From Microgenomates group bacterium (lineage in GTDB: Bacteria; Patescibacteriota; Microgenomatia; Daviesbacterales; UBA10151), in contig JBAZXP010000001.1 of NCBI GenBank assembly GCA_041659805.1, positions 384,589 to 448,588 on the forward strand: a stretch of 64,000 nucleotides of DNA, read 5' to 3'. Below are positions 521 to 37,829 of the stretch, piece after piece. The stretch's first letter is position 1; the number at the start of each line of letters is the position of its first letter. The translations under genes and the position numbers were made by a program. The notes under the pieces are model-generated. The model did no database searches. It worked only from the letters and a program-made list of their open reading frames with translations, and was not told the origin of the DNA.

Positions 521-2131
521 ATGATACAATCTTTTGATATGAAAACATGGAAAATATTCCCTCAAAAATTTGATGATCCGGTAAAACAATTGCTTTATAA
601 CCGTGGGCTAAAAACAGAAAAAGAAATTGAAGAATTTTTTCATCCAAAATTAGAAGATTTTGAAAAAGAATTAAATATTCCAGGGTTAGAGAAGGCAAAA
701 AAAAGAATTTTGCAGGCAATTAAAAATGAAGAGATAATTGTTGTTTTTGGTGATTACGATGCCGATGGAGTGTGTTCCTTAGCTGTAATGTATTATTCAA
801 TTTCAGAGTTAGGAGGAAAATTTTTGCCCTATATCCCCCATCGTGATAAAGAAGGGTATGGCTTATCAAAAGTAGGGTTGGACTATGCAAAGGAACAGGG
901 AGCGGGACTTGTAATCACTGTTGATAATGGGATTGTGGCGATAGATCAGTCAAAATATGCAAAAGAAATCGGTTTGGATTTAATTATTACTGATCATCAT
1001 TTACCGCTTGATATATTACCTGAAGCACATGCGATAGTCCATTCAACCAAACTTTGTGGAGCAGGTGTAGCTTGGAGTTTAGCAAGGGCTTTGGTTAACA
1101 CAAAAATAAGCAATGATTTATTGGATATAGTGGCGATCGCTACAGTATGCGACATGATGCCCCTAATTGGTGTGAATAGAGCTTTAGTAAGTGAGGGTCT
1201 TAAAAAATTAAATCATACAACTAAGGTTGGGTTAATTGCATTGATGGTTGAAGCTCGTTTAATAAAGGGAGAAATTACTACTTACCACATTGGTCATATC
1301 ATAGGTCCCAGAATTAACGCATTAGGGAGAATAGAGCATGCCATGGATTCCCTTCGCCTGCTTTGTACGAAAGATATTAAAAAAGCCAGAACAATTTCTA
1401 AGCATTTGTCTGATGTTAACGCACAAAAAAAACAGTTAACAGTTGACGCGATATTTGAAGCAAAAGAAATTATCAATCAAATCGAAATAAAGAAAAAAAT
1501 TATTATTGTTCGTTCAGATAAATGGATCCCCGGAATTATGGGACTCGTTGCAGGACGTTTAGTTGAAGAATATGGAATGCCGGCAATTGCTATATCTTGT
1601 GAGAATGGTTTTGCTAAGGGTTCTGCCAGATCAACTAATGAAGTAAATATCGTGGAGGTAATTAGAAAGTGCAGTGATTTATTAATTGGCGTCGGAGGAC
1701 ATCCGAAGGCTGCAGGTTTTTCTCTTGATGTAGAAAAAATTGAGCAGTTCAGGCAAAAAATGGAAAAGTTAATGGAAAGCGCTGAGGTTTTTGAGGGAGA
1801 AACTATTAATATAGAAACAACAATCAAAACAAAACAAATTACCAAAAAACTTGTGGAAGAGCTAGAGAATTTCGAACCAACTGGAGTGGAAAATCCTAAG
1901 CCTATTTTAGCTTCTATGCAAACACCTATTTTTGATATTCGAACAGTGGGAGAAGGGAAACACTTAAAGCTTAAAGTAGATGGATTAGATGCAATAGCTT
2001 TTGGCATGGGGGAGTTGGCAGAACAACTTAAAAATGGGCAGGATGTTAATTTAGCATATAATTTGGAGTTAAATACTTTCAATGGCGCGGAAAAAATTCA
2101 GCTGAAAATTGTAGATATTATTTCGTCTTAA
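521..2131 (+). CDS. recJ: single-stranded-DNA-specific exonuclease RecJ (DHH/DHHA1)
   Basis: 536 aa; VVFGDYDADGVCS, ITDHH (DHH motif), GGHPKAAG (DHHA1) in RecJ order. Confidence 0.8.
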   Translation: MIQSFDMKTWKIFPQKFDDPVKQLLYNRGLKTEKEIEEFFHPKLEDFEKELNIPGLEKAKKRILQAIKNEEIIVVFGDYDADGVCSLAVMYYSISELGGKFLPYIPHRDKEGYGLSKVGLDYAKEQGAGLVITVDNGIVAIDQSKYAKEIGLDLIITDHHLPLDILPEAHAIVHSTKLCGAGVAWSLARALVNTKISNDLLDIVAIATVCDMMPLIGVNRALVSEGLKKLNHTTKVGLIALMVEARLIKGEITTYHIGHIIGPRINALGRIEHAMDSLRLLCTKDIKKARTISKHLSDVNAQKKQLTVDAIFEAKEIINQIEIKKKIIIVRSDKWIPGIMGLVAGRLVEEYGMPAIAISCENGFAKGSARSTNEVNIVEVIRKCSDLLIGVGGHPKAAGFSLDVEKIEQFRQKMEKLMESAEVFEGETINIETTIKTKQITKKLVEELENFEPTGVENPKPILASMQTPIFDIRTVGEGKHLKLKVDGLDAIAFGMGELAEQLKNGQDVNLAYNLELNTFNGAEKIQLKIVDIISS

Positions 2132-2342
2132 AATAACCAATCCCCTCCCAGCCATTTATATCAAATCCAGTTACTCTAAATGTTCTTCCTTCAGGAACTG
2201 ATGCTTGTCCATTACCCATATAACAACCTTCCGGACTAACAGGTACTTTCATTACACCAACTTTATATCCTAATTTTTCTACTTCTTCCCGCGTGCTGAA
2301 TAATTCAGGTGCTGGTTTTGTTCTTTCTTTCACTTTTATCAC
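2118..2342 (-). CDS. small hypothetical protein (71-74 aa), GTG start
   Basis: ORF with AAGGAGGTG Shine-Dalgarno immediately upstream; likely start is the second GTG at 2333 (8 nt spacing). Lies downstream of leader repeat copy 1. No recognisable domain. Confidence 0.4.
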   Translation of the reverse strand: MIKVKERTKPAPELFSTREEVEKLGYKVGVMKVPVSPEGCYMGNGQASVPEGRTFRVTGFDINGWEGIGYFKTK

Positions 2343-2366
2343 CTCCTTTTAGGTAATTTTTTGAAT

Positions 2367-2468
2367 AAAAAAACCTCTCATTTCTGAGAGGCCTCCTTCT
2401 TCCTTAAGCTAATTTTTTTGCTTAAGTAAGACCTCCCATAGGTACTCCAATGAGTACCAAGAGAAGGC
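2367..2468 (-). repeat. ~100 bp structured leader repeat, copy 1 (three hairpins; AUG of a 10-codon uORF MRGFFIQKIT sequestered in hairpin CCUCUCAGAAAUGAGAGG)
   Basis: Near-identical to 3712-3814. Contains inverted repeats ggtactc/gagtacc, cttaagc/gcttaag and cctctca/tgagagg; GGAGG SD precedes the hairpin ATG. uORF stop TAA overlaps the SD of the downstream gene. Confidence 0.7.
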
Positions 2469-2597
2469 TGACGAGAATAATATTTAAAACTGAGATAGAT
2501 TTAATTTCCATTTGAGATATTTTATATCTAAATACTTATGTTTGTCAAAGACAGAATAAATTTGAAAAGCAAATAATTTTAATATATACTACAGGGT

Positions 2598-3014
2598 ATG
2601 CAAGAGACAGCCATAAGTTGTCCTTTTTGTAATATTCTTGAAGGAAAAATTCCAGGTTTTATAGTTGCGGAAAATAACCTTGCTACTTGTATACTTTCCC
2701 TGGAGGGGCATCCTTTAGTAATTCCTAAAAGGCACATCACTGATTATTTAGATCCCAGTTTGGATTCAAAAACGATTCAAGAACTAGCATTACTGGAGGC
2801 TAAGATAGTGCTATTAACTAGTAGGATATATGGTGTCAAAGATATAGCAATGCTTTCACTGAATGGAACCGGTGCCGGTCAGGAAGTGAGTCATTTGCAT
2901 AAACATATTATTCCGGTAATTAGCGGTCCAAGGATTATCAGCATTAGACGTACACCTAATCTGGATAATTCTAAGTTATCTGAAATAGCTGCTAAATTTA
3001 AAGAGATGGTGTAG
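2598..3014 (+). CDS. HIT-family (histidine triad) nucleotide hydrolase
   Basis: 138 aa; N-terminal CPFC zinc motif and HLHKHIIP histidine-triad (HxHxHxx) motif. Confidence 0.75.
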   Translation: MQETAISCPFCNILEGKIPGFIVAENNLATCILSLEGHPLVIPKRHITDYLDPSLDSKTIQELALLEAKIVLLTSRIYGVKDIAMLSLNGTGAGQEVSHLHKHIIPVISGPRIISIRRTPNLDNSKLSEIAAKFKEMV

Positions 3015-3726
3015 CACTTAAATGTTGATGTCGTCTGATTGCTGAACAAGCCCTTCGTGCTGCTGTCTGCAAAAACTTTTGTCTTGAGTATTCAATAGCA
3101 TCATGCTCGATTTTTTGCCAAATCCCGGAAGGATCGTGAAGAGGTCTGGCAAGCGATCCGATGTATGTTAATGCTTCGTTATAATTATTTCTGGTTAATT
3201 TTTCCAGATTTTGAATGTGAACTCCTATATTATTATGTATTCGTTCTCCTCCCTGAGCTCGGTAAGGTCTGATATAATCAAAAAGTTCGTTTCGGGTGTT
3301 TTCTGTAAAATCACCGATTACTGTCAGATCGACGTTGCTGGGATCGTCATGATATTTGTCCCGTGTTAATCCTTTGGCAACTGATCCAAAAAGCAGGACA
3401 GCAAAGTTGTTTAAGTCCAGTCTTTTTGCTTCGTCAACAATATGAGATGTCATTTTCTGTGCTTCTGCATATAAATATTGCCTCCAGTTTAAATCTACAG
3501 AATACATATATTGTCTGCCTGAATTAGGTGTAGGAAAACGTTTTTTCATATGGGGATCATCAACCAGAATCTTCAGTCTCTGACATTCCTCTTCCGGAAG
3601 AGAATTATTTTTTAAAATAGCCGAGGAAATAGCTTTTGTTGATTCACTGGGAAGCAGGACAATAAGTCCTAAAGTATGTGCCCAAAACATTTGTTCGCCT
3701 TTTTCTTTCATAAAAAAACCTCTCAT
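2998..3726 (-). CDS. Pol-beta superfamily nucleotidyltransferase-domain protein (paralog A)
   Basis: 242 aa; LLFGSVAKGLTRDKYHDDPSNVDLTVIGDF matches hG[GS]...D.D NTase motif. Start ATG (MRGFF...) sits inside the leader hairpin, with GGAGG SD 10 nt upstream. Tail-to-tail overlap with the HIT gene. Confidence 0.6.
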   Translation of the reverse strand: MRGFFMKEKGEQMFWAHTLGLIVLLPSESTKAISSAILKNNSLPEEECQRLKILVDDPHMKKRFPTPNSGRQYMYSVDLNWRQYLYAEAQKMTSHIVDEAKRLDLNNFAVLLFGSVAKGLTRDKYHDDPSNVDLTVIGDFTENTRNELFDYIRPYRAQGGERIHNNIGVHIQNLEKLTRNNYNEALTYIGSLARPLHDPSGIWQKIEHDAIEYSRQKFLQTAARRACSAIRRHQHLSATPSL

Positions 3727-3814
3727 TTCTGAGAGGCCTCCTTCTTCCTTAAGCTAATTTTTTTGCTTAAGTAAGACCTCTCATAGGTACTCTAATGAGG
3801 ACCAAAGAGTGGCC
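3712..3814 (-). repeat. ~100 bp structured leader repeat, copy 2 (includes SD and MRGFF start of NTase paralog A)
   Basis: Aligns with 2367-2468 at >90% identity over ~85 bp, then decays. Confidence 0.7.
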
Positions 3815-3970
3815 AATAAATTTAATATTTGTGATAGTTGTATTTAAATAATTCATACCAAAGAGTATTTTAGATCTTTAAGTTTACTCTTGTCAACAAC
3901 AAAAGTGTTTGTTAAAATATTTTTTATGTTCAACAAGCATAGCAACTTTAGATTTTTCTTTACCTTCGCT

Positions 3971-4040
3971 AATTCGCGGAGGTAATTTTGCAACCTTAAG
4001 AAAGCAGCAAAAGAAGCCTCCGGTAAGCGGAGGTTTTTTT
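3971..4040 (+). promoter_or_regulatory. attenuator-like leader: intrinsic terminator hairpin (GCCUCCG-guaag-CGGAGG + U7) with upstream competing CGCGGAGG segment, just 5' of NTase paralog B
   Basis: Stem 4017-4022/4028-4033 followed by ttttttt at 4034-4040, ending 12 nt before the ATG at 4052. cgcggagg at 3975-3982 could pair with cctccg instead. Confidence 0.4.
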
Positions 4041-4051
4041 GTGGAGAAAAT

Positions 4052-4843
4052 ATGAAAACAGAAATAAACAAATACATTATTCATGAACGGTCAGGATTGC
4101 CGATAAGAATTCCGCCGTATCTAAGAAAAGAACTTGCGCACGGCACGGAAATTGGAGAGATACAAAAAGAAATGATTAGAAAAAGTCCGGTTATTGGATG
4201 CAGAGGTGAACAGGATTGTCTGCCGGGTAATTTACTTGAAAATATCCGTTTAAGGAAGATAGCCAAATTGGTATCAAATAGATTGGTGGAAATTGCAGAA
4301 GACAGGCAGATCAGTCGGTATTGTACTGTTGTGCATGGATCACTTGCCAGAGGATTGGTTCGTTGTCCGGAAAGTTCGGATCCCAGCGACATAGACATTG
4401 ATTTAGTAATTGGAGGTAAGAAAGACTGCAGTGATTTGAGGAAACAAGTCCGCGAACAAATGCATGGCTTAAAAGATTCTCTTGGAGCTCGGATTGATAC
4501 TTATGTTTGGAATATTGAAGAAATGAGAAGGAATAAAGGTGACTATGCCAGGTTAAGTTTAAGTGCCGGTGCTTACGTACTTGTGAGTAAAGGAAGCTTA
4601 TGGGAAGAGATTTTCGAGGTAGGCATAGAGAGCCAAAAATTTATTAATTTAGAGAGAAATATCAAAGATCAATTAGCTAAACGCCTTGATCATATTTTAA
4701 TAAAAAATAATATCACTGAAGCATTAACAGATTTTAAAAGCGATAGAATGCAATTAGTCGTGGGTTCTTATTTTAACGGAACATCAGAACCTTGGGAAAT
4801 AAGATTAAAAGCACAAGCTTTAAAAAGACTGATTATGTCTTAA
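4052..4843 (+). CDS. Pol-beta superfamily nucleotidyltransferase-domain protein (paralog B)
   Basis: 263 aa; VVHGSLARGLVRCPESSDPSDIDIDLVIGG (GS...DxD). Same architecture as paralog A: ~100 aa N-extension, NTase core, ~130 aa C-region. Confidence 0.6.
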   Translation: MKTEINKYIIHERSGLPIRIPPYLRKELAHGTEIGEIQKEMIRKSPVIGCRGEQDCLPGNLLENIRLRKIAKLVSNRLVEIAEDRQISRYCTVVHGSLARGLVRCPESSDPSDIDIDLVIGGKKDCSDLRKQVREQMHGLKDSLGARIDTYVWNIEEMRRNKGDYARLSLSAGAYVLVSKGSLWEEIFEVGIESQKFINLERNIKDQLAKRLDHILIKNNITEALTDFKSDRMQLVVGSYFNGTSEPWEIRLKAQALKRLIMS

Positions 4844-5052
4844 ATCAAAAAAACAAAAGGAGGTGATAATTACAGCAGCAGCGTGTAATAAGCTAATTGA
4901 AGCGAAAAAGATGGGTGCCGGCGATAATATTATTAATTCGGCACTGGAAAACTTAGTAAATGTGGTTGCAAACACTAAAGGTAGTGCAGAAGCTCTTAGA
5001 CAACTCCAACCTGATTGATATTGTTAATCTAGCCTCAAACTGATATGATCTA

Positions 5053-6384
5053 TTGGTTATGCAAAGAACATTAATTATTGATTGTAATAAAAACATTGGA
5101 GAAACAGTGGAAATTTGTGGTTGGGTACAAACCAGGCGTGACCATGGGAAAATTGTGTTTTTAGATGTTTTGGATAGATCTGGAGTTATTCAGGTTGTGG
5201 TAATGGGAGATAAAGCAGGTGATTTAAGACCCCAGGATGTAGTTTGTATAGAAGGTAATGTGGCAAAACGCCCAGAACACATGATAAATAAAAATTTATC
5301 AACAGGTGAAATTGAACTTCAGGCAGAAAAAGTTGAAATATTGTCTAAAGCAGAAGAATTACCTTTTGATATGGGAGGTAAAGATTTAGATCTGCAGCTA
5401 CCTACTCTTTTAGATTTTAGAGGTTTAACTTTAAGACATCCAAAAGTTAAAGCAATTTTTAAAGTACAAGAAGCTGTGATAAATGCTTTTAGAGAAGGAC
5501 TTAAAAAACATAATTTTACAGAATTCCAGGCTCCTGTAATTATTCCTCAAACAGCAGAAGGTGGAGCAGAAGTTTTTGAAGTAAATTATTTTGGGAATAA
5601 AGCATTCTTAGCCCAGAGCCCACAATTTTATAAACAAATTTTAGTAGGAGTTTATGAAAGAGTTTTTACTGTAAATAAAACTTTAAGAGCAGAACCATCT
5701 GTTACTACCAGACATTTAGCAGAAGCAACAACGCTTGATGCAGAAATGGGTTTTATAAATAGCTGGGAAGATTTGATGGATGAAATAGAATATTTGATTA
5801 AATATATTTTTAAAAGTGTTGAGCAAGAATGTGCAGATGAATTAAAACTTTATGATGTTTCAGTTCCTCAAATTGAAAATAAAATTCCCCGAATAAAAAT
5901 GAGAGAAGCTCAGGAAATAATTTATAAAAGGACAGGAGTGGATCACAGAAATGAACCAGACCTGGCCCCAGAAGATGAAAGGGAGATTGGAAAATGGGCG
6001 ATTGAAGAGCATAAATCAGAAGTAATTTTTATAACCCATTACCCTACTTCCAAAAGACCTTTTTATACAATGCCAGACAAAGATGATCCAGAACATACTT
6101 TGAGTTTTGATTTAATTGGCAGGGGAGTGGAATGGTTAACTGGTGGACAAAGAATTAATAATTTAGAAACTCTGATAGAAAAAGCCAAAGCAAAAGGGGT
6201 AGATTTACACAAAAGTGAACTTTATATTCAGGCTTTTAAATATGGTATGCCTCCAGAAGGTGGTTGGTCTTTTGGTTCAGAAAGAATTACTCAGGGAATT
6301 CTAGGACTCTCAAATATTCGTGAGGCATCTTTATTTCCAAGAGATATGGAGAGGGTTGATGTCCGATTATCCACTATAAAATGA
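5053..6384 (+). CDS. aspS: aspartyl-tRNA synthetase, archaeal/eukaryotic-type class IIb (AsnRS not fully excluded)
   Basis: 443 aa; N-terminal OB fold, QSPQFYKQ, RAEPSVTTRHLAEATTLDAEMGF motif 2-like, C-terminal GxGxERxxxxxxGxxNIRExxLFPRD. Confidence 0.7.
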   Translation: MVMQRTLIIDCNKNIGETVEICGWVQTRRDHGKIVFLDVLDRSGVIQVVVMGDKAGDLRPQDVVCIEGNVAKRPEHMINKNLSTGEIELQAEKVEILSKAEELPFDMGGKDLDLQLPTLLDFRGLTLRHPKVKAIFKVQEAVINAFREGLKKHNFTEFQAPVIIPQTAEGGAEVFEVNYFGNKAFLAQSPQFYKQILVGVYERVFTVNKTLRAEPSVTTRHLAEATTLDAEMGFINSWEDLMDEIEYLIKYIFKSVEQECADELKLYDVSVPQIENKIPRIKMREAQEIIYKRTGVDHRNEPDLAPEDEREIGKWAIEEHKSEVIFITHYPTSKRPFYTMPDKDDPEHTLSFDLIGRGVEWLTGGQRINNLETLIEKAKAKGVDLHKSELYIQAFKYGMPPEGGWSFGSERITQGILGLSNIREASLFPRDMERVDVRLSTIK

Positions 6385-9668: not shown

Positions 9669-10928
9669 ATGGCACAATATATTATAGAAGGCGGTAATAA
9701 ACTTAGGGGTAAAGTTAAAATTTCCGGAAATAAAAACGAGGTTTTGCCTTGTTTGGCAGCGTGTCTTTTAACAGAGGAAGAAGTAACTTTAAAAAATGTT
9801 CCTCATACTGCTGATGTGGAGACGTCTCTGGCTATTTTCCGCGATCTTGGTGTTGAGATCTCAAGGGAAGACGGAATTGTTAAAGTAACCTGTAAAAATA
9901 TTAATAGAACAATCTTAAAAGAAGATTTGGCAAATAAATTAAGAGCGTCTGTTTTATTTGTCGGTCCGCTACTTGCCAGATTCGGAAAAGTGGAGTTTCC
10001 ACACCCAGGAGGTTGTGTAATTGGCAGAAGAAGTATTGATACACATCTTGATGGATTTAAACGTTTGGGTTTTAAATTTAGTATTCAGGGAAATAATAAC
10101 AAAGGCACACGAAGCAATGTTGATTTCAAAGACACTGAGATATTTCTAGAAGAACCTTCAGTTACAGCAACAGAAAATATTGTTTTGTCAGCTACCCTTA
10201 TTCCAGCCATAACTACTGTAAAAAATTGTGCTGTTGAACCACATGTGGTAGGACTTTGTAAGATGCTTAAAAAAATGGGAGCCGAGATCGAAGGAATCGG
10301 AACACAAACTCTTAAAATTGACGGTGGCAGTAAACTTCATGGAACAGACTATACGATCGGATCGGACAATGTTGAATTTGGTACTTATGCTGTGGCGGCT
10401 GCAGTTACGAATGGAGAAATTGAAATCGAAGGAGAAGATCTTGACGGACTTGAACCTATAACTAAACCTTTCGAAAAGATGGGTGTTAAATTCGAAAAAA
10501 CAGATTCCGGTATTAAAGTTTCTGTAGGAGCACTGAAGGCAACTCCCCAGCTTCGTGTGAATGTTTGGCCGGGTTTTCCGACAGATATGATGAGTGCAGC
10601 AATTGTTTTGGCAACTCAAGCTAGAGGAGTTACACTTTGTCATGACTGGATGTATGAATCAAGAATGTTTTTCGTTGATAAGTTGATTACAATGGGAGCA
10701 AACATTACTTTGGCAGATCCTCACCGGGCATTAGTTTCAGGACCAACAAAATTAAGGGGTAAAAATTTAGATACACCAGACCTTCGGGCGGGTATGGCTT
10801 TGGTAATCGCTGCTTTGAGTGCAAAAGGCACCAGTGTTATAAATAGGGCAGAGCTAATCGAACGGGGTTATGAAGATGTAGTTATGAAACTCACAAATCT
10901 GGGCGCATCAATTAAAAGAGTAGAATAA
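9669..10928 (+). CDS. murA: UDP-N-acetylglucosamine 1-carboxyvinyltransferase
   Basis: 419 aa EPSP-synthase fold; KISGNKNEVLP, catalytic Cys region GGCVIGRRSIDTH. Confidence 0.85.
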   Translation: MAQYIIEGGNKLRGKVKISGNKNEVLPCLAACLLTEEEVTLKNVPHTADVETSLAIFRDLGVEISREDGIVKVTCKNINRTILKEDLANKLRASVLFVGPLLARFGKVEFPHPGGCVIGRRSIDTHLDGFKRLGFKFSIQGNNNKGTRSNVDFKDTEIFLEEPSVTATENIVLSATLIPAITTVKNCAVEPHVVGLCKMLKKMGAEIEGIGTQTLKIDGGSKLHGTDYTIGSDNVEFGTYAVAAAVTNGEIEIEGEDLDGLEPITKPFEKMGVKFEKTDSGIKVSVGALKATPQLRVNVWPGFPTDMMSAAIVLATQARGVTLCHDWMYESRMFFVDKLITMGANITLADPHRALVSGPTKLRGKNLDTPDLRAGMALVIAALSAKGTSVINRAELIERGYEDVVMKLTNLGASIKRVE

Positions 10929-32062: not shown

Positions 32063-33675
32063 ACATACAAGATATTAAAATCAATCCACTTTTTAATACT
32101 ACTTTAGCATTACCTAAAAAAGCAGTTATTTATATAAGAGTGTCTTCAGAAGAACAAGTAGAAAATTTCTCATTAAAAACTCAGGAAGAAATTTGCAGGA
32201 GAGATGCAAAGTATAAAGGATATGAAGTAGCACAAGTTTTTAGAGAAGAGGGTAAATCTGCAAAAAATATTATAGGTAGACCAGAACTACTTAAGATGAT
32301 TGAATTTTGCAGAAAGAATAAAAAAGAGGTTAGAGGAGTATTTGTATATAGATTAGATAGAATATCAAGACAAACCTCGGATTATTTAGCTCTTAGAAAA
32401 AGATTCTATGACATGGGCATAGCCTTAATTTCAGCATCAGAACCTACAGGAAATTCACCTACGGAAAAGCTATTAGAGACAGTTTTAGCAAGTTTTGCTC
32501 AACATGATAACGATGTAAGGTCAGAAAGAACTAAAAATGGCATGCGGGCAAGATTTTTAATGGGTCTTGTGACAAACCATGTACCTTTGGGCTATATAAA
32601 TCAGTCAGGGCATGCAACGAAAGATCCTAAAACCTTTGACTTATATAAAAAAGCTTGGGATTTAATGACTACTGGAAATAAAAGTTTAAAAGAGATGCAA
32701 GTACTTATGCAAGAATGGGGTCTTCCTGTTGCTGGTCCGCAAACAGTTCACCATATGTTTAGAAACAAATTCTATATGGGCATATTAACCTCAAAAAGTT
32801 ATCCAGAAGAAGTAAGAGGCCAGCATACTCCAATGGTCACAAAAGAACAGTTCTACAAAGTACAAGCAATTTTGGACGGAAGAAACCTCAACCCCAATAA
32901 AATGCCTAAATATACTAGAGATAATCCAGATTTTCCTCTCAGAAGAATCATTTGTTGTGGTAAGTGTGGTACTCCCTTTACAGGGGGATGGAGCAAGTAT
33001 CATCAATTTGCCTATTACTTTTGTAGAAGGAGATGCATATACAAATCTATACCAGTTGGAGAACTACATAACGAATTATCAAAACTGCTAACAAAAGTCA
33101 GTCCTTCAGAACAAGGGATAGAGATGTACTGTAAATTGCTTCTAAAAACATACGGTCAGCAGTTTAAAAAGTTAAACAAGACAAAAAAAGCATCTGACGA
33201 GGAAATTAAAAAGCTACAAGCTTTAAGACAAACTTTAGTTGAGAAGAATCTGGCAGGAACCTATTCTGATGATATCTTCAAGGAACAAAACGCCATTATA
33301 GAGGAGAAACTAACAGCAGCTTTTGAGGCACAAAGTAACGAGTTAATTGATAAATATAATATTGATGCAATTACTAGCTTTATAGAAGATAAGCTCTCAA
33401 ATTTAGCACAAACATACTCAACATCAAGCCTAACTCAGCTTCGCTTCCTTCTCAGTACGATATTTCTGCCAGGATTCTCTTGGGGCTATCCAGGCATTTC
33501 GTACCAAGGGTTTAGCCCCGTATATCAAGCTATTCATGATGCTGGCGAACCAGACATCAAAGTCGGCTGCGGGACTTGGATTCGGACCAAGATAGACAAC
33601 TTCAGAGGCTGTCGTCCTACCATTAGACGATCCCGCATTACATTTACGGAATCCCGTAATGTTAACGTATTTTAG
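32059..33675 (+). CDS. large serine recombinase (resolvase catalytic domain + recombinase domain + zinc ribbon)
   Basis: AVIYIRVSSEEQ (catalytic Ser region), YRLDRISR, zinc ribbon CCGKCGTPFTG...CRRRC. ORF has no in-frame stop until 33675 and reads through the att repeat and tRNA-Gln, so its C-terminal ~35 codons are probably not genuine. Confidence 0.8.
   Translation: MNIQDIKINPLFNTTLALPKKAVIYIRVSSEEQVENFSLKTQEEICRRDAKYKGYEVAQVFREEGKSAKNIIGRPELLKMIEFCRKNKKEVRGVFVYRLDRISRQTSDYLALRKRFYDMGIALISASEPTGNSPTEKLLETVLASFAQHDNDVRSERTKNGMRARFLMGLVTNHVPLGYINQSGHATKDPKTFDLYKKAWDLMTTGNKSLKEMQVLMQEWGLPVAGPQTVHHMFRNKFYMGILTSKSYPEEVRGQHTPMVTKEQFYKVQAILDGRNLNPNKMPKYTRDNPDFPLRRIICCGKCGTPFTGGWSKYHQFAYYFCRRRCIYKSIPVGELHNELSKLLTKVSPSEQGIEMYCKLLLKTYGQQFKKLNKTKKASDEEIKKLQALRQTLVEKNLAGTYSDDIFKEQNAIIEEKLTAAFEAQSNELIDKYNIDAITSFIEDKLSNLAQTYSTSSLTQLRFLLSTIFLPGFSWGYPGISYQGFSPVYQAIHDAGEPDIKVGCGTWIRTKIDNFRGCRPTIRRSRITFTESRNVNVF
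33565..33580. repeat. attR-like direct repeat = 3' end of tRNA-Gln
   Basis: GCTGCGGGACTTGGAT identical to 16076-16091. Confidence 0.6.
33567..33637 (-). tRNA. tRNA-Gln (anticodon CUG)
   Basis: Manual fold of the minus strand: acceptor UGCGGGA/UCCCGCA, D-arm GUCU-AAUGGUA-GGAC, anticodon arm ACAGC-CUCUGAA-GUUGU, variable CUAU, T-arm CUUGG-UCCGAAU-CCAAG, discriminator G; CCA not encoded. Confidence 0.7.
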
Positions 33676-34009: not shown

Positions 34010-34624
34010 ATGAAGATTAATACTTTGGTGGTGGGGAGTTTGAAGACAAATTGCTATTTGGTTACATCGGGTGGAGAGGTGGGGATTATTGATCCTGGGG
34101 ATGACGCTGATTATATAATTCGTGAAATCCAGAAAGAGAATTTCACTCCTGTCTGGATAGCCTTAACTCACGGACATTTTGATCATGTTTTAGCTGTTTC
34201 AGAGCTTTGTTTAGCTTTTAGTATTCCTTTTTATATGCACCCGGAAGATGAGTTTTTGCTGGATCGAGCTAAAGAAACTGCAGAACATTTTACAGGAGTT
34301 TATGCAGATCCTGTTTTAGTTAAATTTAAAGATTTAAAAGAAGGAATGAAATTAAAAGTAGGGAAAGAGGAATTGGTAGTAATTGAAACACCGGGGCATA
34401 CCCCGGGTGGAATCTGCCTTTATTCCAAATCTGAAAAAGCTCTATTTTGTGGTGATTTAATTTTTGACAGGGGTACAGTTGGCAGAACTGATTTTAAATA
34501 TGCGTCAGAGGAAAGTTTAGAAAAATCAATTAAAAAGGTAATGAAACTACCTAATGAAACAGTTGTTTACCCAGGACATAGCGATAAAACAACGGTTTTT
34601 TCCCACAAAAAAACCCGCACGTAG
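34010..34624 (+). CDS. MBL-fold metallo-hydrolase (glyoxalase II-like)
   Basis: THGHFDH (HxHxDH) motif, 204 aa. Confidence 0.75.
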   Translation: MKINTLVVGSLKTNCYLVTSGGEVGIIDPGDDADYIIREIQKENFTPVWIALTHGHFDHVLAVSELCLAFSIPFYMHPEDEFLLDRAKETAEHFTGVYADPVLVKFKDLKEGMKLKVGKEELVVIETPGHTPGGICLYSKSEKALFCGDLIFDRGTVGRTDFKYASEESLEKSIKKVMKLPNETVVYPGHSDKTTVFSHKKTRT

Positions 34625-34634
34625 CGGGTTTTCT
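34608..34634 (+). terminator. rho-independent terminator
   Basis: AAACCCGC-acgta-GCGGGTTTTCTT overlapping the stop of the MBL gene. Confidence 0.6.
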
Positions 34635-37004: not shown

Positions 37005-37829
37005 ATGTTATTTGCTACTGAATTTGCCGAACTTGAACAAAAAGCACTTCAAATAAGGCAGGATATTATTAAAATGCTGGTTAGCGCCGGTTCAGGCCAC
37101 AGCGCAGGACCGCTTGGTTTGTCAGATATTTTTGCTGCACTTTATTTTAAAATTCTGAAAGTTGATTCTAAAAAACCCGATTGGATAGATCGGGATAGAT
37201 TGGTTTTATCCTGTGGCCATTATTGTCCTGTTCTTTATGCAACCTTGGCGCGTGCGGGGTATTTCCCAGAATCTGAATTATTAACTTTGCGAAAATTTGG
37301 ATCAGGTCTTCAGGGTCATCCTCACAGAGAATCACTACCAGGTTTAGAAACTACATCCGGGCCTTTAGGTTCAGGGTTATCAGAAAGTTGTGGGATGGCG
37401 CTCGCCGGAAGGATGGATCATAAAGATTGGCGGGTAATTTGCATAATGTCTGATGGGGAACAAGATGAGGGGAATACCTGGGAGGGAGTTATGTTTGCCG
37501 CAAAATATAAACTGGATAATCTGGTAGCCTTAATTGACAGAAATCATATTCAAATTGATGGGATTACAGAAGACATAATGCCGATAGATCCTTTGACAGA
37601 AAAATATAAAAGTTTTGGATGGGAAGTAATTGAAATTGATGGACATGATTTTAATCAGATTATAGATGCTTTTGAGAAAGCTAAAACAATAAAAAATAAA
37701 CCTACTGTTATTATTGCCAAAACAATTCCCGGTAAAGGTGTTTCTTTTATGGAGGGTAAATTTGAGTGGCATGGTAAGGCACCAACAAAAGAGGAAGGAG
37801 AGAAAGCATTGCATGAACTTAAATCCTAA
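37005..37829 (+). CDS. transketolase, N-terminal (TPP-binding) subunit of split enzyme
   Basis: 274 aa; GHSAGPLG, GHPH, DGEQDEGNTWE. Confidence 0.8.
   Translation: MLFATEFAELEQKALQIRQDIIKMLVSAGSGHSAGPLGLSDIFAALYFKILKVDSKKPDWIDRDRLVLSCGHYCPVLYATLARAGYFPESELLTLRKFGSGLQGHPHRESLPGLETTSGPLGSGLSESCGMALAGRMDHKDWRVICIMSDGEQDEGNTWEGVMFAAKYKLDNLVALIDRNHIQIDGITEDIMPIDPLTEKYKSFGWEVIEIDGHDFNQIIDAFEKAKTIKNKPTVIIAKTIPGKGVSFMEGKFEWHGKAPTKEEGEKALHELKS

Follow-up and report, generated by a model that had tools for sequence, protein, structure and literature searches.

A duplicated leader with the layout of a peptide-coding transcription attenuator precedes a nucleotidyltransferase gene and a small gene in a Microgenomates bacterium

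A stretch of 64,000 nucleotides (nt) from a Microgenomates group bacterium (assembly GCA_041659805.1, contig JBAZXP010000001.1, positions 384,589 to 448,588), a member of the candidate phyla radiation (CPR, Patescibacteria), was analysed. This whole stretch is called the window, and all coordinates given without a locus number refer to it. On its minus strand two genes are each preceded by a copy of one element of about 150 bases, which reaches up to the promoters at 2548-2519 and 3896-3867. Copy 2 lies upstream of nucleotidyltransferase (NTase) A and copy 1 upstream of a gene for a protein of 71 amino acids (aa). Each copy contains a promoter, a short open reading frame (ORF) with no Shine-Dalgarno (SD) sequence, several hairpins and an intrinsic terminator directly before the gene. 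The parts, numbered as regions 1 to 4 in the order of transcription, are as follows.

2519..2548, minus strand: copy 1 promoter, TTGACA, 18-nt spacer, TAAAAT; 11/12 consensus matches, aligned with the copy 2 promoter
2422..2511, minus strand: copy 1 leader ORF, 29 codons and a stop, MEIKSISVLNIILVSLLLVLIGVPMGGLT; AUG 7 nt past the -10 box, no SD (leaderless type)
2462..2468, minus strand: copy 1 region 1, CCUUCUC, the 5' arm of outer helix P1, Leu codons; seen in folding, covariation helix 1
2441..2458, minus strand: copy 1 inner hairpin, GGUACUC-AUUG-GAGUACC, codons L-V-L-I; seen in folding, covariation helix 2
2428..2438, minus strand: copy 1 region 2, UGGGAGGUCUU, a near copy of the terminator 3' arm; predicted partner region 1 (P1) or region 3 (antiterminator)
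2403..2426, minus strand: copy 1 middle hairpin, CUUAAGC-A7UUA-GCUUAAG, leader UAA in the 5' arm; covariation helix 3, three pairs with double changes
2367..2393, minus strand: copy 1 intrinsic terminator (regions 3 and 4), GGCCUCUCA-GAAA-UGAGAGG and seven U; holds the AUG of a formerly proposed MRGFF start
2118..2333, minus strand: copy 1 controlled gene, 71-aa protein of unknown function; GTG start at 2333, own SD AAGGAGG
3867..3896, minus strand: copy 2 promoter, TTGACA, 18-nt spacer, TAAAAT; 11/12 consensus matches
3767..3856, minus strand: copy 2 leader ORF, 29 codons and a stop, MNYLNTTITNIKFIGHSLVLIRVPMRGLT; AUG ten nt past the -10 box, no SD
3807..3813, minus strand: copy 2 region 1, CCACUCU; C-G to U-A compensatory change relative to copy 1
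3786..3803, minus strand: copy 2 inner hairpin, GGUCCUC-AUUA-GAGUACC, one mismatch; seen in folding
3773..3783, minus strand: copy 2 region 2, UGAGAGGUCUU, identical to the terminator 3' arm UGAGAGGU; seen in sequence, nascent folding and covariation
3748..3771, minus strand: copy 2 middle hairpin with the leader stop codon; seen in the core repeat count and in folding
3712..3738, minus strand: copy 2 intrinsic terminator and seven U; the 3' arm GAGAGG is the only SD-like sequence for the AUG at 3711
2998..3711, minus strand: NTase A, 237 aa, divergent NTase of the Pol-beta fold; true start AUG 3711

Positions 2357-2460 and 3702-3805 form a direct repeat (104 nt, 94% identity) whose sense strand is the minus strand, in agreement with a preliminary description made from the letters alone. 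From 2461/3806 down to 2364/3709 there are three mismatches only (97% identity across the 3' 98 nt). Upstream of this boundary the copies still align without an indel, with a sharp drop in identity to roughly 45%, and near-identity is thus limited to the structured 3' ~100 nt. Repeat cores of 27 nt and 32 nt each occur exactly twice in 64 kb (0 expected from shuffles). The same description had named three hairpins, and all of them are present in the minimum-free-energy fold: GGUACUC/GAGUACC (GGUCCUC/GAGUACC in copy 2), CUUAAGC/GCUUAAG, and CCUCUCA-GAAA-UGAGAGG. In copy 1 P1 (CCUUCUC with GGGAGG) surrounds the first. The folding z-scores of the leaders range from -4.7 to -6.7. Both promoters are found about 150 nt upstream of their respective terminators, and both leader ORFs stop at the same UAA, inside the 5' arm of the second (middle) hairpin. 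The promoter was correctly said to be duplicated, but it lies outside the segments that had been delimited.

The third hairpin had been described as not a simple terminator. This is contradicted by the seven U that follow it: in both copies it is an identical intrinsic terminator with a 7-bp G+C-rich stem, a GAAA loop and U7. Strict intrinsic terminators number five in 64 kb, and three of these belong to leaders (the two copies and a third attenuator described below). Elsewhere in the window such terminators are scarce. The other two strict sites, hairpins with U5, are at 34612-34630 and 37176-37194 (both minus strand), one intergenic and one within a gene; on inspection the leader architecture was absent from both.

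The arms of this terminator have a competitor. Region 2, UG(G/A)GAGGUC, nearly repeats the 3' arm of the terminator, UGAGAGGUU (region 4), and is complementary to the 5' arm GGCCUCUCA (region 3), while region 1 (CCUUCUC or CCACUCU) pairs with region 2. This gives the mutually exclusive 1:2, 2:3 and 3:4 layout. Masked equilibrium folding of the full-length leader always gave the terminator, and folding was then done on a nascent transcript ending before region 4, in which bases under the ribosome were forced single-stranded. With no ribosome P1 (1:2) formed and region 3 was left for the terminator. With the A site at codons 14-21 (VSLLLVLI in copy 1, IGHSLVLI in copy 2) an 11-bp antiterminator 2:3 of about -21 kcal/mol was predicted, which encloses the middle hairpin. 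From codon 24 to the stop region 2 was covered and only the terminator was possible. The antiterminator was predicted solely for A-site codons ~14-21.

These pairings suggest the following mechanism. Transcription would start at the sigma-70-type promoter, and the first AUG, at or within a few nt of the 5' end, would open the 29-codon leader ORF. During smooth translation the leading ribosome would reach the stop codon in the middle hairpin and cover region 2; if no ribosome were loaded, region 1 would pair with region 2. In either case region 3 would stay free to pair with region 4, and the resulting CCUCUCA-GAAA-UGAGAGG-U7 terminator would halt transcription before the gene. A ribosome stalled on the Leu, Val and Ile codons around 14-21 (CUU CUC UUG GUA CUC AUU) would cover region 1 and not region 2. 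Region 2 would then pair with region 3, and RNA polymerase would go on to transcribe the gene behind the leader, the 71-aa gene in copy 1 and NTase A in copy 2. For NTase A the released terminator arm GAGAGG would double as the SD of AUG 3711; since this arm is the only SD-like sequence there, the terminator fold would also hide the SD. Both copies are quite likely to be transcription attenuators of the trp/leu/phe type, in which a ribosome on the leader-peptide ORF mediates the choice. The leader ORF is probably translated, judging from its conservation, and the predicted terminators presumably do end transcription.

Shared control had been proposed from the duplication itself. This stands in so far as the duplicated promoter and 5' leader precede two genes and would act after initiation, but the sensing part is the upstream leader ORF rather than the hairpin next to the gene. 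A translational gate, also proposed, survives in copy 2 as the terminator hairpin that sequesters GAGAGG before AUG 3711; it is not a start-codon trap, as the stem and U7 make up a terminator. The suggested alternative of a small cis-regulatory RNA or a protein-binding site is not needed.

The architecture recurs in relatives. NTase A-family loci were taken from metagenomes and GTDB genomes, and 17 distinct loci were examined. Immediately before the gene, about 13 of these have the full set of elements: a promoter, then a short ORF with no SD, the 1:2 and middle hairpins, and a terminator. The leader AUGs of the orthologues are found 7-13 nt past the -10 box, and such ORFs recur in about 25 leaders of three classes. 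In about 16 related leaders the ORF has 13-35 codons, and its frame through region 2 and the position of its stop are kept. The orthologous peptides (MNSETLSIKFVLLITR, MNYKNLSNKLVLLLTR, MKSLFIVRFLINA, MKFNLFTCVLLINP and similar, each ending at a stop) are rich in Leu and Ile, and the orthologous stems differ entirely in sequence (e.g. CCCGCC-AAAUA-GGCGGG against CCUCUCA/UGAGAGG).

Two loci with other downstream genes share the leader architecture. In L036, a syntenic Daviesbacteria locus, a leader of the window type (MNSLNIFNTNIILLGLLLVLIGVPMGGLI and a stop) is followed by two small ORFan genes in place of NTase A; its terminator is unchanged, its middle hairpin is not. Its ORF likewise has 29 codons, with the matching C-terminal half ...LLLVLIGVPMGGL(T/I). 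In L040 a window-type leader is placed before a methyltransferase gene and an orthologue of the 71-aa gene.

Covariation was scored on five long-class leaders against 500 shuffles. Rows in which an automatic picker had mis-assigned the terminator (several orthologous leaders) were left out, and the short-class leaders were folded singly, their MAFFT alignment being mis-registered and its consensus fold not used. In the terminator state the 35 pairs are 90.8% paired and six of them show double changes (reached in 3/500 shuffles), against 42-62% paired in slid controls. The antiterminator state is also 90.8% paired overall, its 2:3 helix alone 94%, and one position covaries three ways across regions 2, 3 and 4. 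Across this set the ORF reads region 2 in one frame (GGA GGU) and stops in the middle hairpin, although the distance from the AUG to region 2 varies by +/-15 nt. The leader structure is conserved beyond sequence, because the hairpins are kept in relatives with compensatory changes and with unrelated stem sequences. The reverse pattern, sequence kept and hairpins lost, which the preliminary description had named as evidence against itself, was not what was found.

The codons of the leaders point to the signal. The stall window was defined as the six codons ending at the last position competent for antitermination. In the leaders of the aliphatic class (n=12), to which the duplicated element belongs, Leu, Ile and Val make up 53/72 stall-window codons, against 24.6% in the genes of the window (p = 3e-18). 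Leu alone is enriched (p = 9e-12), and Phe is not enriched in the stall windows of these 12 leaders. The near-invariant core is Leu(CUY)-Ile(AUU), and the key position uses CUC, which at 4% is the least common Leu codon here.

Two sister classes read differently. An attenuator of unrelated sequence and the same layout lies on the plus strand beside copy 2, upstream of NTase B (4052-4843).

3890..4040, plus strand: third attenuator, whole
3890-3918, plus strand: its promoter
3926-3985, plus strand: its leaderless-type ORF, MFNKHSNFRFFFTFANSRR and a stop
3960-3985, plus strand: its 1:2 hairpin
4015-4040, plus strand: its terminator

In mask folding the third leader gave an antiterminator for A-site codons 10-14 only (FFFTF). 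Peptides of its orthologues end in ..FKFFFTFA, ..FRFFGYFTFA and ..VFWFFYFTR, each followed by a stop, and in leaders of this type Phe accounts for 39 of the 66 stall-window codons and Leu, Ile and Val for none. The orthologues are found between rplT and a run of NTase B, small gene and pheS, before NTase B and pheA (prephenate dehydratase), and before an aminotransferase operon. The class looks like a Phe regulon akin to E. coli pheM/pheL.

The Lys class has rare AAG Lys codons just 5' of region 1 (..SKMAKKDL.., ..LKSKNN.., ..SMKKLP..) and occurs upstream of further NTase paralogues (L028 1555-1680, L025 1186-1300, L011 1565-1680). In L028 the leader, with three AAG codons, starts a same-strand run in which an NTase (2456-3214) is followed by the gene of a class I lysyl-tRNA synthetase (LysRS, 3245-4843), about 1.6 kb downstream; no terminator was noticed between leader and LysRS.

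Copy 2 (minus) and the Phe-type leader (plus) have back-to-back promoters, with -35 boxes overlapping at 3890-3896 (TTGTCAA). This twin-attenuator cassette is kept in three genomes (the window, L036 at ~3838-3846 and L040 at ~505-512) despite different downstream genes.

Amino-acid sensing is supported by these sister leaders, because the Phe type precedes pheS and pheA and a Lys-type leader heads the run containing LysRS. For the duplicated element the charging of Leu/Ile (branched-chain) tRNAs would be the most likely signal. This assignment is less certain than the mechanism, and its chances appear only slightly better than even.

Several points weigh against the attenuator reading or its signal. 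The genes downstream of the aliphatic leaders (NTase A, the 71-aa gene, 70- and 76-aa ORFans, a methyltransferase) show no recognisable link to Leu, Ile or Val; genes that make or charge the sensed amino acid are found behind the sister leaders only. The stall window of copy 2 holds only four branched-chain codons. The leader ORF has no SD, and the putative transcription start is placed by the promoter motif only. The covariation comes from five sequences related to one another. The truncated transcripts of several orthologues favour the antiterminator at equilibrium even without a ribosome, and therefore the switch must be kinetic there. Each of the three window leaders has RF01859 Phe_leader as its best match among leader-type Rfam models, below the gathering score of 55 (27.4 bits for copy 1, 25.6 for copy 2, 30.3 for the third leader, and at most 38.7 for orthologues). 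To our knowledge transcription-translation coupling has not been studied in CPR bacteria.

Other explanations were weighed against ribosome-mediated attenuation by amino-acid supply. The attenuator might work as described and yet sense a drug: the nascent peptide, through its conserved ..V-L-(L)-I.. residues, would halt the ribosome under antibiotic or general translation stress (erm, cat, vga and toiL type) and so induce the NTase as a resistance enzyme or toxin. The leader peptides do share residues (..IKF.., ..VLLI..) beyond plain codon runs, the controlled gene encodes an NTase with the fold of the Lnu/ANT resistance enzymes and toxins, and no Leu/Ile metabolic gene lies downstream. However, neither NTase A nor NTase B has a match among resistance, toxin or defence families. 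Both have sub-threshold NTP_transf_2/Polbeta Pfam matches only, and searches of Pfam, NCBIfam (no ANT/Lnu), PADLOC and PDB sequences yielded no membership. The predicted fold of NTase A has high confidence (pLDDT, the predicted local distance difference test, 90.7), and its Foldseek matches in the PDB are weak, with DrrA best (E = 3e-3), followed by minimal NTases, TdT, Cid1 and TENT5. The peptides lack conservation in their N-terminal half, where even the two copies differ, and rare codons occupy the regulatory positions as in classical attenuators. The sister leaders, moreover, are amino-acid-specific in composition and precede pheS/pheA or, in one case, a run with class I LysRS. Drug sensing is consequently improbable.

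Less probable still is an attenuator controlled by a ligand, tRNA or protein, in which the domain of P1 and the inner hairpin would serve as aptamer or binding site and so stabilise the anti-antiterminator, the ORF being a chance feature with no translation. Riboswitches use the same terminator, antiterminator and anti-antiterminator logic, the ORF lacks an SD, and the structured 3' half is 97-100% identical between the copies and nearly so in L036. Against it, no unpaired core is common to the orthologous leaders. What they retain is the ORF with its frame, stop position and Leu-Ile codons, whereas the stems, the loops and even the hairpin count vary, and the ORF recurs at 7-13 nt past the -10 box across the three classes. 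The Rfam scan that had been recommended found no leader family at the gathering thresholds, where the sole match in the window is a tRNA gene (33567-33637, minus strand), and E-value scans gave no T-box or riboswitch family.

The preliminary description had itself proposed translation gating only, by a hairpin that traps the AUG starting NTase A (MRGFF...) in copy 2 and a 10-codon upstream ORF in copy 1. A GGAGG does lie 10 nt before that AUG, and one gene caller (the ENA record) used this start. The GGAGG, read there as an SD, is the weakly pairing base of the terminator stem, and U7 follows the hairpin. The supposedly conserved MRGFF is AUG AGA GGU UUU UUU, i.e. the terminator loop, 3' arm and U tract in translation, and the 10-codon ORF is a by-product of the duplicated terminator sequence. 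An MGGFF in the Daviesbacteria orthologue L015 arises only because its terminator is of this type. The alignment of nine family members begins at MKE(K/R)(A/G)EQMFW, most NTase A orthologues have no in-frame AUG upstream of this motif, and the NCBI form has 237 aa and begins MKEKGEQ. The start of NTase A is corrected to AUG 3711, directly after the U tract, with GAGAGG 7 nt before it. Control by a trapped AUG is thus very improbable.

Equally hard to credit is an independent small gene, whose ~145-nt terminated transcript would be a trans-acting small RNA (sRNA) or whose hydrophobic 29-aa peptide would be a membrane peptide like the type I toxins. A promoter and a terminator of its own, the strong hydrophobicity of the copy 1 peptide and known cases of attenuator-derived sRNAs and functional leader peptides (rnTrpL/peTrpL) speak for it, but the first half of the copy 2 peptide is not hydrophobic, orthologous peptides have 13-16 aa, the element always abuts a same-orientation downstream gene with the AUG often directly after the U tract, and a role in trans would add to attenuation, not replace it. 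The points given for each led to the rejection of the MRGFF start, of a riboswitch, and of the type I toxin and sRNA-only readings.

The origin of the duplication can be approached from synteny. The two copies flank exactly the pair of NTase A and a HIT-family hydrolase gene, and L036 has a single aliphatic leader at the corresponding place and lacks the pair. This, together with near-identity confined to the 3' ~100 nt, suggests that a unit of leader, NTase A and HIT gene was inserted by recombination within the leader, or that gene conversion occurred later. NTase A (2998-3711, minus strand) and the HIT gene (2598-3014, plus strand) converge, with 3' ends overlapping at 2998-3014. The convergent pair is also present in L002-L005, where gene calls were inspected, and most other loci have a convergent downstream ORF. 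NTase A and the HIT hydrolase may form a functional couple, as the pairing suggests.

The 71-aa protein encoded behind copy 1 has no Pfam match; its relatives P0025 (99% identical) and P0026 (79%) are also 71 aa long. Orthologues of NTase B are followed by an ORFan of 50-90 aa. In the neighbourhoods of these genes (window 4863-6384, L038 4789-7587, L041 2339-3667) there are also aminoacyl-tRNA synthetases (AspRS, PheS, TyrRS/TrpRS family) and a YbaK-type tRNA-editing gene.

Leaderless starts are not confined to the attenuators. In about 10 of 60 putative window genes a promoter-like motif puts the start codon 6-11 nt past the -10 box with no SD (e.g. HIT at 2598, AspRS at 5059, and the starts at 9669, 11268 and 59752), which suggests that leaderless mRNAs are frequent in this genome.

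NTase paralogues often adjoin an aminoacyl-tRNA synthetase gene (the cognate one in the Phe case) and a conserved HIT hydrolase gene. A tentative proposal, possible though held with some doubt, is that the element forms one arm of a hitherto undescribed starvation-response regulon in Microgenomates. The NTase paralogues (A, B and others) would each lie behind a leaderless attenuator tuned to Leu/Ile, Phe or Lys, be induced by shortage of one charged tRNA, and act on that tRNA, its synthetase or the adenylylated intermediate. The attenuator-controlled NTase family is the more interesting lead, with its putative paralogue-specific regulon. The leaders provide a functional handle on two ORFan-like protein families whose expression appears wired to the supply of specific amino acids.

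Ribosome-coupled transcription attenuation is best known from Proteobacteria and Actinobacteria, and the present leaders indicate the classical form in CPR bacteria as well. Its confirmation would mean that transcription and translation are tightly coupled in these organisms and that they use leaderless initiation. A full-text literature search found no paper joining leader peptide, attenuation and CPR.

The duplicated element is outside any curated Rfam family. Sub-threshold Rfam matches to BTnc231 and Phe_leader were taken as resemblance of architecture only, and Leu_leader (RF00512) has no match to the window at E <= 10. Nearest in design is nevertheless E. coli leuL, which has LLLL in the middle of its ORF and a peptide of similar length (28 aa, MTHIVRFIGLLLLNASSLRGRRVSGIQH, against 29 aa). 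With the E. coli leu and ilv leaders the window element shares a mid-ORF cluster of Leu or branched-chain codons, the use of rare codons, an ORF running through region 2, the 1:2, 2:3 and 3:4 pairings and an intrinsic terminator at the end. Unlike in the leu leader, the ORF begins at the 5' end or close to it and lacks an SD, and P1 and the antiterminator each enclose one additional hairpin. The element also controls uncharacterised NTase and ORFan genes in a CPR host.

The E. coli pheST (pheM) and pheA (pheL) systems belong to the same mechanism class; attenuation of pheST in E. coli has been described (PMC4082710, citing Fayat 1983 and Springer 1985). The third leader (..FRFFFTFA..) resembles the pheM and pheL peptides, and its orthologues between rplT and pheS are in the position of pheM, with the difference that an NTase and a small gene are inserted between leader and pheS. 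The duplicated element, by comparison with Phe_leader, is Leu/Ile-rich and not Phe-rich.

In Actinobacteria a leader peptide and a terminator are found before aminoacyl-tRNA synthetase genes (leuS/trpS) and before ilvB, with runs of Ile, Val and Leu (PMC1262725). In mycobacteria a leaderless small ORF as first cistron forms an amino-acid-responsive attenuator (polycysteine small ORFs; bioRxiv 10.1101/834739). These Cys leaders have no obvious intrinsic terminators (PMC1262725), whereas the window element has a canonical terminator and antiterminator, and phylum and regulon differ. The mechanism is most likely a textbook one, the organism and the uncharacterised controlled genes being new. The element differs from known attenuators in its leaderless-type leader ORF, in the terminator arm used as SD and in its regulon.

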